Shown: positions 11,676-14,897 of the stretch, in pieces
Position numbering within the stretch: position 1 is the first letter of the stretch
Layout: each line of letters begins with the position of its first letter
IMG/VR virus record: IMGVR_UViG_3300029286_001647
Source of the DNA: a virus
DNA length: 43,509 nucleotides
Direction: 5' to 3' (one strand)
Notes under the pieces: generated by a model
Database searches by the model: none
The model's input: only the letters and a program-made list of their open reading frames with translations
Told to the model about the DNA's origin: nothing
Position numbers and translations under genes: made by a program

Positions 11676-11898
11676 CTTTTATCTTATCCTCTACTAATTT
11701 GTTCAACGTAAGCCAATAAGACACTATAAGCTTCTGAGAAGCGCCCACAATGATCGTATCTACAATCCCCGGATCATCCATAACGCCCTCTTTCATGGCG
11801 AACTTCGCTATCTTCCAAGCAAGTTCATCGAAATCGTCTCCAAGCTCTTCCATCAACTTGGACCTTGTGACTATTCTTTTTGTGAGGGGATTTTGCAT
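11659..11898 (-). CDS. small hypothetical protein (79 aa)
   Basis: ORF track. Confidence 0.4.
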   Translation of the reverse strand: MQNPLTKRIVTRSKLMEELGDDFDELAWKIAKFAMKEGVMDDPGIVDTIIVGASQKLIVSYWLTLNKLVEDKIKDGKQT

Positions 11899-12458
11899 TG
11901 TTCCTTAATCCTGTCTACCATCATGCCAAAATAGCTTCTTTCTTCTATCTCGTATCTCACTCCATCAAGATCAACTATATCTCCTATCGCTTTCTTAATC
12001 ACTTCCACGCTCTCTCCCTCTATCTCTATAAAATCACCAAATCCTTCTACAGAATCGATAGCGACTTCATTAATCCCTACTATGTACGGAAAGAAATCCT
12101 CTCTCATTTTAGAATACGAGAGCAAAGGCTTATACCCCAACTGCTCAAGAATAGCTTCCATTGCATCACGATCACCGACTGTAGTTTGAAGTTCAGTTCT
12201 TGTTTTAACACCATCTATTATTCCTGATGGGGCTTTAAATGTTATCAAACCAGTATACCCATTGTCAGTCCTAATACGAAGCACTTTATTATCAAGTCTA
12301 AGCTCCGCACATCGATCATAAAACGTATCTGTAATAGATCTTGTCTGTTTATGACAGACAGCGTCACAATTATGCATCAAATTTCTTCTTAGAAACTCAA
12401 GAGATTCAGGGTTAAGGACTTTAAGTTTGATTTCAATTTCCTTGGTTTGTTCCATCAT
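11871..12458 (-). CDS. CYTH-domain protein (triphosphate tunnel metalloenzyme / CyaB-like)
   Basis: N-terminal 'EIEIKLKV' matches the CYTH ExExK signature. Confidence 0.6.
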   Translation of the reverse strand: MMEQTKEIEIKLKVLNPESLEFLRRNLMHNCDAVCHKQTRSITDTFYDRCAELRLDNKVLRIRTDNGYTGLITFKAPSGIIDGVKTRTELQTTVGDRDAMEAILEQLGYKPLLSYSKMREDFFPYIVGINEVAIDSVEGFGDFIEIEGESVEVIKKAIGDIVDLDGVRYEIEERSYFGMMVDRIKEQCKIPSQKE

Positions 12459-13101
12459 TTTCTCCTTGGCTAAACGACATCCAATCTGCCTTATTTGCCT
12501 TACTCATCTCAACAAGTTTCTTTCCTAATGAAATCTCTTCTCCGCTATAATCGAGTATTGCTTGTATCTCTCTCATAACATTGACGATATTTCTTGCATC
12601 ATCAATACCTCGATGCTGAACTCCCTCAAACGTAAGGTTCACTCTCTGCACAGCAGTAGCAAGTCCGCATCCTGTCTTCTCCCACATTTTACCAGCATTT
12701 ATCATCACTCTTCCGATAAATGGCTTAATGTTGATATGACGAGTACGGAATGGATATGGATTTCTAAACAGTTTACAGTTATTCATAAGGATCTTTCTAT
12801 CGAAATCACCCCATGAACAAAACACATCATCAGGCTTAATCGTCGCAGCCCACTTCGACAATCCTTCTCCGAACTTCACTCCCTGAGAATCGATCATCTC
12901 TTGTGTTATATTCGTCAACCTCGTACAGAACTTACTTAGCTTTGGATTATATTTCGGTTTTATAAGAACACATATCGAATCTATTTCATCTAACGTTTCT
13001 GGATCTATTCTAACACAACCTATTTCTATAATTTCTTGAGTCGGATTTCTGGGTCTGTAATTCCAACAAGTCGCCTCAAAATCAGTTATACATAAACTCA
13101 C
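12433..13101 (-). CDS. DEDDh 3'-5' exonuclease (DnaQ/RNase T-like)
   Basis: 'ITDFEATC' (Exo I D-x-E), 'HRGIDDARN' (H-x4-D motif III). Confidence 0.75.
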   Translation of the reverse strand: MSLCITDFEATCWNYRPRNPTQEIIEIGCVRIDPETLDEIDSICVLIKPKYNPKLSKFCTRLTNITQEMIDSQGVKFGEGLSKWAATIKPDDVFCSWGDFDRKILMNNCKLFRNPYPFRTRHINIKPFIGRVMINAGKMWEKTGCGLATAVQRVNLTFEGVQHRGIDDARNIVNVMREIQAILDYSGEEISLGKKLVEMSKANKADWMSFSQGENDGTNQGN

Positions 13102-13127
13102 TACACACCTAACCTTCCTAAGAGCTT

Positions 13128-13667
13128 TTAGCTCTTTAACAAATCTCCGCCTATCAAAGTAGGCAGAACCACCCTCTCAATACAAACCTTTTTGAACGTA
13201 TCGAAAGGAACTAACATACCTTTTAACATGCATTCCCTACCATTCCTTATGGCATCAAAGCTTTTCACTTCGTAAGAGAACCAGTCATGTATGGCAAATC
13301 TCAATGATACGAGATTGCTAAGATACATAATATGAATCTTGGGAATATAATAGACAAGTATTTGTGCTTTGGAAGCCCATGCCCATCCATTCTGTTTCAT
13401 TCCTTGTGTATCGGAACATAATGTTTCTATAAACACTCCATTCATCTCATTAGGATCTACGACATATTTTACAAGCCACTGTTTCGGTAAATCGCTCTCA
13501 ATCCAGCAAGCTTCTACGTCGAGAGATCTGAAAATACCAGATGCTATATCATCTTCTTGAGTCTTCCCTTCTTCTGGGAATGTCTCATTAAGATTACTGA
13601 TAGCGAATCTATCTGCAAAATAATCTTCGATTATTTCTACACCTAACTTATGTACTTTATCGTTCAC
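13128..13667 (-). CDS. hypothetical protein (179 aa)
   Basis: ORF track. Confidence 0.5.
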   Translation of the reverse strand: MNDKVHKLGVEIIEDYFADRFAISNLNETFPEEGKTQEDDIASGIFRSLDVEACWIESDLPKQWLVKYVVDPNEMNGVFIETLCSDTQGMKQNGWAWASKAQILVYYIPKIHIMYLSNLVSLRFAIHDWFSYEVKSFDAIRNGRECMLKGMLVPFDTFKKVCIERVVLPTLIGGDLLKS

Positions 13668-14071
13668 TGCTTATTCTCCAGTTTAATGTCAGTTACCCAC
13701 ATTTCAGGATTCAAGAAAGTAGAAACTCCTGCTTTCTTAGCCTGATCCATCATATTTTTAGTTCCTCTGCTATTCTCTATGTCATCGGAAAAAGCTACAA
13801 CTACATCTGGCTTACCTTCGACAAGCATCTGCTTATTACGGATAGGACCAGCAGCCTTGCCATTCTTCTCCCAATTAGCGGGGAACTTCAAAATACGTTC
13901 TTCTGGTATCCCTTTCTTCTCTGCTGCTTGCCTAGCCATTGTGTCAGCGCCTTTCGCTTCCCCTTCGATGACTACAGAACCTACTGGCAAAGAGAAAACA
14001 AACTTCTCAATCTTAGTGTAGTTCTCATAGGCTCTACTTCCGCAAATCAGCACTCTTGGTGGTCGATTCAT
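13664..14071 (-). CDS. SLOG-superfamily / DprA(Smf)-like Rossmann-fold protein
   Basis: 'ICGSR', 'GEAKGADTMARQAA', 'GPIRNKQM' resemble DprA/SLOG motifs. Confidence 0.4.
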   Translation of the reverse strand: MNRPPRVLICGSRAYENYTKIEKFVFSLPVGSVVIEGEAKGADTMARQAAEKKGIPEERILKFPANWEKNGKAAGPIRNKQMLVEGKPDVVVAFSDDIENSRGTKNMMDQAKKAGVSTFLNPEMWVTDIKLENKQ

Positions 14072-14897
14072 TTTCTCTCCCTTTCGCTTTGATTGTCTCT
14101 AAAACATCATTTGGAAATGCAACATATAATCCAAGATTGTATATTGGTATTATACCGCATCTATATGCCACAGCCATTCCGACCACTTCGTATTTGTCAT
14201 TAAATACAGCACAACCAGAATCGCCATTTACTACCCCGCCAGTGAATACCCCTCTTTCCGTATCACCATTAGACATCCATCCACCAAACATACCACTCTT
14301 AACTATTGGTGGACTACCCATAGAGCAACCACAAGATATAAGCTTATCCCCTCTTTTGGGAAAATCTTGTGACATTTGCACAGGCTTCGCCCACCCTTTC
14401 TCAACTTCTACTTTCATCAAAGATATATCTTCCGCACTACCAAAATAGATCAGTTTTGCTCTTTTCCTATTTATCTTGTCAACAAATCCGTATGGATTAT
14501 ATTTGAAAAACTCAACATCTATTTTGTCCTTTGGTTTCTGATAAGGAACAAAAGATAGACGCATTTCTTTCGGTCTAGTTGTGACCATTAGTCCATTAGG
14601 AATTACTTCTACTGGACCCGGATGTACTTCTATAGATGTAGGCAATGGTCCTACTTCTAGTACTTTCAGCTCATAATCTGTTTCAGATATGACATGAGAT
14701 GCAGTCATAATCAAGACTTCATCAGTATTCTCTTTCTGTATTACCTCTACAACAAAGCCAGAACCATAATCATTCACTCTTACAGCAGTAGCTATTACAG
14801 ATCCATCTAGCGTCTTTGGAGGCAATAGCTTTCCAAGATAGAAAATCGCGGCGAAGAAAAGACAGATAGGGACTAGAAACCATAAATTACTTTTCAT
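14034..14897 (-). CDS. membrane-anchored trypsin-like serine protease
   Basis: N-terminal TM helix, 'TASHV' (His), 'NGDSGCAVF' (GDSG Ser motif). Confidence 0.75.
   Translation of the reverse strand: MKSNLWFLVPICLFFAAIFYLGKLLPPKTLDGSVIATAVRVNDYGSGFVVEVIQKENTDEVLIMTASHVISETDYELKVLEVGPLPTSIEVHPGPVEVIPNGLMVTTRPKEMRLSFVPYQKPKDKIDVEFFKYNPYGFVDKINRKRAKLIYFGSAEDISLMKVEVEKGWAKPVQMSQDFPKRGDKLISCGCSMGSPPIVKSGMFGGWMSNGDTERGVFTGGVVNGDSGCAVFNDKYEVVGMAVAYRCGIIPIYNLGLYVAFPNDVLETIKAKGRENESTTKSADLRK

Follow-up and report, generated by a model that had tools for sequence, protein, structure and literature searches.

Downstream of a gene for a homologue of the major vault protein (MVP) in IMG/VR virus record IMGVR_UViG_3300029286_001647 lie five closely packed genes, and the question raised by this locus is whether their products work together and, if so, on what kind of substrate. 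The window, by which the whole 43,509-bp stretch of DNA analysed is meant, had initially been annotated as carrying at this place a tightly coupled operon, possibly a phage counter-signalling or self-processing module functionally tied to the vault protein. The analysis reported here supports the anatomy of that proposal, that is, the domains and motifs, and does not support its functional reading: the five genes are real and close-packed, and their conserved core looks like a nucleic-acid-processing set, whereas neither a counter-signalling nor a vault-linked system was demonstrated. All five open reading frames (ORFs) are present; they follow the MVP gene (14965-17241) on the minus strand and encode the following proteins (lengths in amino acids, aa).

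11871-12458, minus strand: CYTH triphosphate tunnel metalloenzyme, read as triphosphatase type, 195 aa (PF01928)
12433-13101, minus strand: ERI1/3'hExo-like DEDDh 3'-5' exonuclease, 222 aa, nuclease domain only (RNase_T, PF00929)
13128-13667, minus strand: PD-(D/E)xK nuclease-fold protein, 179 aa, with a degenerate tetrad, from a phage family without a Pfam model
13664-14071, minus strand: YAcAr-family SLOG protein (formerly DUF2493), 135 aa (PF10686, phrog_289)
14034-14897, minus strand: trypsin-like serine protease, predicted to be membrane-anchored, 287 aa (Trypsin_2, PF13365)

Gene order is conserved in the nearest relatives

Two relatives of the cluster were compared with the window, relative A, which combines two contigs (L042 and L007) overlapping at 99.6% identity, and relative B (L043). 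In relative A the protease (34% identity to the window protein), the SLOG protein (61%), the PD-(D/E)xK-fold protein (41-46%) and the N-terminus of the exonuclease (59%) follow each other in this order and their genes overlap at the junctions as they do in the window. In relative B the C-terminus of MVP (44%) is followed by about 195 nucleotides (nt) containing a remnant of the protease gene, by the SLOG protein (52%) and by the PD-(D/E)xK-fold protein (41%). The overlap of 4 nt between the SLOG and PD-(D/E)xK genes is kept in all three lineages (window, relatives A and B), and for these nearest relatives the gene order indicated by the initial annotation is conserved. The remnant in relative B (1306-1455 of L043) corresponds to a decayed C-terminus of the protease (FNEKDDLIGIRV..IPIYH) and shows that the protease was recently lost from the ancestral arrangement and is dispensable in this relative. 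A search with anchor A4 gave no match in viral contigs or GTDB genomes.

The conserved core encodes a SLOG protein, a degenerate nuclease fold and an exonuclease

The SLOG protein had been described as SLOG/DprA-like. Its membership in the SLOG superfamily was confirmed by PF10686 (7e-10, 39 bits versus a threshold of 28.2) and phrog_289 (1e-25), whereas the relation to DprA holds only at the superfamily level, as DprA model PF02481 reached 14.6 bits of the 29.6 required and a DprA protein in the PDB was matched with E=0.05 across 50 residues only. Homologues were detected in 760 phage records, and the best-ranked deposited phage proteins share 39-45% identity with the window protein. The YAcAr gene of Vibrio phage H188 adjoins genes for a Cas4-type exonuclease, Exo VIII, a helicase and a RecA-like NTPase, in Klebsiella and Escherichia phages the YAcAr gene adjoins that for DNA polymerase, and HelB of phage ICP1 is an SF1B helicase fused to DUF2493 (10.1101/671271). 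Around the nine viral homologues closest to the window protein (identities of 37-57%, in eight cases 47-57%) lie genes for families such as Toprim, DnaB, GyrB, RuvB, SbcC-like ATPases, PDDEXK_1, AAA_24, PC4 and DUF669; of the 36 families matched, the 25 that were listed contain no Macro, NADAR or Nudix. With the replication/recombination modules of H188 and ICP1 the window has in common the SLOG family and its adjacency to, or overlap with, a PD-(D/E)xK-fold gene; in contrast to them, its partner fold is devoid of the canonical catalytic residues, an ERI1-type exonuclease gene comes next, and no helicase, polymerase or recombinase gene lies nearby.

The product of 13128-13667, to which no identity had been assigned initially, has the alpha-beta-beta-beta-alpha-beta core of the PD-(D/E)xK nuclease fold. 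A word-indexed homologue search with the 179-aa protein returned only the protein itself, whereas a full HMMER scan found 87 cluster representatives, mostly of about 160 aa; likewise, AlphaFold2 reached a predicted local distance difference test score (pLDDT) of 29 from the single sequence, whereas the alignment-based model succeeded. The family profile matched nothing significantly among PDB sequences, and Pfam, which has no model for the family, gave single weak PDDEXK matches only. Family members display a Hjc-like tetrad, with the helix-1 Glu present in 50 of 60 sequences, the Asp in 58 of 60, and the Glu and the Lys of the Glu-x-Lys motif in 55 of 60 each. The window copy differs from this pattern and from nucleases of the Hjc, RecU and I-Ssp6803I types, with 5-8% identity to solved structures, in that V10, E52, K67 and V69 stand in place of E, D, E and K, and in its closest relative (P0122) the corresponding residues are S, D, K and I. 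As the tetrad is degenerate in both proteins, the branch to which the window copy belongs has lost the canonical active site. The family-invariant residues D71, E81 and G94-W95 are retained.

The wider family, uncatalogued so far, consists of phage proteins of about 160 aa with the consensus GIDR..VEYKxD..TGNxFIETVSVD..GWAYTS, and its genes are typically located directly downstream of a gene for a Dam-type methyltransferase. At 31 loci from IMG/VR (L008-L038), phage Dam-type methyltransferases accounted for 14 of 46 neighbours, a SLOG gene was nearby in 1 locus, and an exonuclease, CYTH or protease gene in 0.

The initial call of a DEDDh exonuclease was borne out by a match to RNase_T (PF00929, 9e-21) and by the presence of D7, E9, D101, H163 and D168, all five of which align to the catalytic residues of human ERI1 in the PDB (2e-17). 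This nuclease domain is shared with ERI1/3'hExo and with bacterial KapD, but RNase_T was the only domain detected in the Pfam scan, so that the SAP domain of eukaryotic ERI1 is missing, and the score against the KapD equivalog NF005838 (86 bits) stays below its cut-off of 169. ERI1-like exonucleases are rare in phages and were detected in 7 of 50,697 deposited records, the best match being encoded by the 636-kb phage LR756504, where the gene stands without any of the cluster partners. Homologues at about 40% identity (L039, L040, L041 and LR756504) have no neighbours in common with the window.

A putative trio acting on nucleic-acid 3' ends

Taking gene order and domain content together, we tentatively favour, at somewhat less than an even chance, the reading that the region is a clade-specific accessory cassette in which the SLOG protein, the pseudo-nuclease and the DEDDh exonuclease act jointly on the 3' ends of nucleic acids. 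The region would belong to a long series of accessory genes all read in one direction, and the unit kept by evolution would run from the protease through the YAcAr SLOG protein and the PD-(D/E)xK-fold protein to the ERI1-like exonuclease. Its tightest link would be the SLOG/PD-(D/E)xK pair, presumably coupled in translation via the 4-nt overlap. Catalysis would come from the exonuclease, substrate binding or an adaptor role from the nuclease-fold protein, and binding of nucleotides or single-stranded DNA from the SLOG protein. The substrate would most likely be DNA of the phage or the host, and the setting either replication/recombination or recycling of host DNA. This reading draws on the DNA-metabolism genes that surround YAcAr genes in other phages and on the Dam-type methyltransferases beside the wider PD-(D/E)xK family. 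The CYTH protein may be a stand-alone triphosphatase hydrolysing tripolyphosphate or nucleoside triphosphates (NTPs), and the protease may be an envelope-facing accessory enzyme; both would be independent add-ons, the latter lost in one relative. MVP would be an ancestral neighbour within the clade, expressed as a separate cistron that ends in a conserved hairpin.

Several points weigh against this cassette reading. ERI1-family enzymes are known chiefly as RNA exonucleases, and therefore the substrate could be RNA. The retained D71 and E81 might form a non-canonical active site in the PD-(D/E)xK protein. Genes elsewhere in the window for an ADP-ribosylglycohydrolase, a Nudix protein and RtcB fit a reading centred on nucleotides or NAD, and YAcAr proteins are predicted to use NAD+ (Iyer et al., 2021, PMC7824862). 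Outside the clade, homologues of the exonuclease and the SLOG protein occur without the other cluster genes, and as each component is found without the others beyond the clade, the trio could reflect inherited synteny.

Should the trio form a real complex, it would provide a first functional handle on YAcAr (DUF2493), which is present in hundreds of phage genomes, and it would bring in a PD-(D/E)xK family not catalogued so far, one branch of which is inactivated. The cassette is best seen as a variant of phage gene sets already known for nucleic-acid processing, with a new branch of a PD-(D/E)xK family.

The protease, which the cassette reading treats as an add-on, matches PF13365 (7e-10, 40.3 versus 27.6 bits) and contains the triad H68/D157/S227 with the serine in a GDSG motif, which agrees with the initial call of a trypsin-like enzyme. 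A hydrophobic segment at residues 7-25 (Kyte-Doolittle 2.23) suggests that it is anchored in the membrane and may face the envelope.

Inherited synteny and the packing of genes in the window

The alternative that keeps most of its force is that unrelated accessory genes have stayed together through recent common ancestry and tight packing and have no joint function, an explanation which we regard as possible although rather improbable. It draws on the packing of the window as a whole. The junctions between the five genes measure, from the CYTH gene to the protease gene, -26, +26, -4 and -38 nt, followed by +67 nt to MVP, and this agrees with the initial statement that they overlap or lie within 26 nt of each other. 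However, the 83 minus-strand junctions of the window have a median of -1 nt and 71% of them are of 26 nt or less, and beyond the CYTH gene the packed run continues into further ORFs:

10203-11898, minus strand: four overlapping ORFs of 79, 139, 298 and 57 aa, extending the packed run beyond the CYTH gene (junctions of -28, -17, -8 and -10 nt)

Scans of the 79-, 139- and 298-aa products against Pfam and PHROG, and of the 139- and 298-aa products against NCBIfam and PADLOC, gave no match. As junctions throughout the window are equally tight and the run goes on past the CYTH gene, spacing fails to single out the five genes, and of the "tightly coupled operon" only the close spacing stands. Promoter-like sites in the window were as frequent as expected from shuffled sequences (26 vs 24.0, standard deviation (sd) 4.7) and terminator-like sites were not clearly above expectation (8 vs 5.0, sd 2.2). 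Coupling thus does not exceed the background and, in place of a flanking promoter and terminator, only a hairpin (14915-14948) marks the upstream edge. That wider homologues of each gene are found without the others, and that relative B lost its protease while the neighbouring genes remained undisturbed, is also in line with synteny only. On the other hand, the order and the exact 4-nt SLOG/PD-(D/E)xK overlap are kept in three lineages at just 34-61% protein identity, a YAcAr gene beside a PD-(D/E)xK nuclease gene recurs independently in Vibrio phage H188 and at L024, and the degenerate nuclease fold suggests dependence on a catalytic partner; these observations argue against synteny alone.

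The CYTH protein and a possible role in counter-signalling

The CYTH domain proposed initially was confirmed by PF01928 (E=2e-14, 54.2 bits versus a gathering score of 23.2), and with EIEIK at residues 7-11, EIE at residues 145-147 and a profile match over threshold, the ExExK motif is not coincidental. The closest solved structure is that of the archaeal SaTTM (Saci_0718, PDB 7NS8; 8e-15), a triphosphatase incapable of cyclic nucleotide synthesis (PMC8233210). According to Vogt et al. (2021, PMC8233210), class IV adenylate cyclases (AC-IV) are marked by HF four residues ahead of ExExK (HFxxxxExExK) and by replacement of the central Arg of (W/x)xRxR with a small neutral residue. The window protein does not contain the HF motif, the six residues ahead of ExExK being MMEQTK, and in LRIR at residues 60-63 both arginines are kept, as in LRLR of SaTTM. 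It scores 66.2 bits against the NCBIfam equivalog TIGR00318 'cyaB', above the cut-off of 57.95, but this name is not diagnostic, because archaeal CYTH proteins share the annotation and SaTTM makes no cyclic nucleotides. The reading as a class IV adenylate cyclase (CyaB) that NCBIfam suggests was ruled out by the HF and Arg criteria. As both cyclase determinants are absent, the protein is read from its sequence as a triphosphatase, which makes synthesis of a signal unlikely and corrects a likely mis-annotation. It shares with SaTTM the ExExK, xRxR and ExE motifs and the absence of HF; it differs in being phage-encoded, without a homologue in deposited phage genomes, and in that its activity is predicted only. 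A tblastn search of the 50,697 deposited phage records found no relative, and IMG/VR yielded one weak partial match only. An exact-sequence look-up of the 195-aa translation returned nothing in a collection whose gene caller starts one codon later (194 aa), and the contigs of relatives A and B end short of the position of the CYTH gene.

These results bear on the second alternative, the counter-signalling put forward initially, in which the SLOG protein, the CYTH protein and the exonuclease would bind or destroy nucleotide signals of host immunity such as cyclic oligonucleotides, ADP-ribose derivatives or NTP-derived alarmones. We consider it unlikely. In its favour, jumbo-phage CYTH and MazG enzymes are predicted to degrade nucleotides and YAcAr proteins to use NAD+ (PMC7824862), the exonuclease matches a generic CRISPR-associated DEDDh profile, and genes for an ADP-ribosylglycohydrolase, a Nudix protein resembling ADPR pyrophosphatases, a NIF phosphatase and RtcB lie elsewhere in the window. 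However, the defence and candidate-defence models of PADLOC gave no multi-component match, only that generic DEDDh profile and, for the protease, matches that were weak and partial, and a link between phage CYTH proteins and anti-defence was not found in the literature. In addition, the CYTH protein fails the cyclase determinants, the PD-(D/E)xK family associates with DNA methyltransferases, and the closest SLOG homologues have replication and recombination genes as neighbours, with the Macro, NADAR and Nudix families absent from those listed. For these reasons the counter-signalling claim was not sustained.

The MVP gene and its boundary with the cluster

Upstream of the five genes, the following features were delimited.

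14915-14948, minus strand: hairpin with a perfect stem of 13-14 bp, located within the 67 nt that separate the stop of MVP from the start of the protease; it resembles a terminator or attenuator but lacks a U-tract
14965-17464, minus strand: split major vault protein homologue, a context gene consisting of a 70-aa ORF (17252-17464) and a 758-aa ORF (14965-17241)

The identity of the "vault gene" is clear from MVP_shoulder (7e-28) and Vault_3 (1e-11) domains, but it is not a single intact gene, as its first 70 codons are in another frame. The +1 frame break occurs at a C5 run (ttt ccc cct cgc caa tga; 17241-17270) and is identical in L002 and L003, two contigs from other samples. Homologous MVPs are single ORFs of 810-860 aa and read VFP-x-ANEGSY where the window requires the shift. 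Behind the stop codon of the 70-aa ORF come a Shine-Dalgarno-like GAGGGA and an ATG; the gene may thus be split, with translation re-initiated, it may be read through a +1 frameshift, or the disruption may be fixed.

The hairpin has a folding energy of -28.3 kcal/mol (z -4.55, 0 of 200 shuffles) and is the sole such inverted repeat in 9500-18500. In relative B, whose MVP is 44% identical, a hairpin with a different stem sequence (1289-1328 of L043, z -6.06) is found at the equivalent position after MVP. This conservation of position speaks for MVP as a cistron with a termination or attenuation of its own.

With phage and bacterial MVPs (Santos et al., 2023, preprint; LR756501) the window protein has shoulder and repeat domains in common, at 44-53% identity to prokaryotic and phage homologues, and it differs from them in its frame-broken ORF and in the clade-specific downstream cluster. 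None of the five genes lies beside MVP in the phage LR756501 (44%), at the closest homologue P0003 (53%) or on the bacterial contigs P0008 and P0011, so that among the MVP loci examined, cluster genes adjoin MVP in relative B only; MVP as a single-protein query found no relatives among viral contigs. In LR756501 (L001, 5211-9332) the intact MVP gene has other neighbours than in the window: within a few kb lie a T4-portal-like fragment, a dUTPase gene and a prohead-protease-like gene, the last of these below the Pfam cut-off.

It is very improbable that the downstream enzymes serve a phage-encoded vault-like particle as its cargo, in its maturation or as functional partners. Three points favour such a role: the clade inherited the adjacency to MVP from its ancestor, as the row of MVP, protease remnant, SLOG and PD-(D/E)xK genes in L043 shows; eukaryotic vaults house NAD+-using enzymes and bind ADP-ribose in the MVP shoulder (10.64898/2026.05.01.722283); and YAcAr is predicted to use NAD+ (PMC7824862). 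It is opposed by the absence of all five genes from the other MVP loci, by dissimilar published phage MVP neighbourhoods (10.1101/2023.11.10.566534), by the conserved hairpin that parts MVP from the cluster and the broken MVP frame, and by a protease that is apparently membrane-anchored and was lost in relative B. The tie to the vault protein is thus limited to the immediate clade, and as the neighbours of this phage vault gene are clade-specific, inference of vault function from neighbourhood is to be tempered. Fainter still is the chance that in a lineage of large phages an MVP shell takes the adenine-nucleotide and nucleic-acid enzymes (SLOG protein, pseudo-nuclease, exonuclease and CYTH protein) as cargo or partners and sequesters or destroys host immune nucleotides, in which case the eukaryotic vault, with its NAD+-consuming TEP1 and PARP4, would have a counterpart among viruses of prokaryotes, formed by shell and enzyme set.

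Other genes in the window

With 43,509 bp, which is also the length of the longest contig on record for its MVP, the window seems to comprise a metagenomic contig in full, a fragment of the genome of a large, probably huge, phage. About 95% of its coding sequence is on one strand, L002 and L003 are 100% identical to it along their full length, and the MVP gene of the 735-kb uncultured phage LR756501 is its only match at the DNA level among deposited phages. No RNA family was detected in the window by an Rfam scan.

NAD/ADP-ribose and RNA-repair-type genes are scattered at 1408-2325, 8611-9207, 19408-19953 and 20775-21977 and encode an ADP-ribosylglycohydrolase, a NudE/ADPR-pyrophosphatase-like Nudix protein, a NIF-family phosphatase and an RtcB RNA ligase. 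The 379-aa product of 34644-35783 (minus strand) has the domains of a GluR0-type ligand-gated K+ channel (SBP_bac_3, 5e-30; Ion_trans_2, 5e-14; Lig_chan glutamate-binding domain, 5e-10), and with these domains its candidate identity as a cyclic nucleoside monophosphate (cNMP)-binding protein was rejected. Two adjacent, distantly related N6/N4 DNA methylases are encoded at 28130-28873 and 28884-29624, a DFP/CoaB-like flavoprotein domain protein at 30996-32012 and a DUF4419 protein (2e-71) at 33367-34422. The window also carries a gene for a tail-fibre-like protein and many ORFs without a family match. At 2797-4207, three genes that overlap in tandem encode paralogous proteins of about 160 aa (29-34% identity), and related copies of this family are located at 6606-7118, 7109-7501 and 7450-7629 and at the start of the window (1-395).

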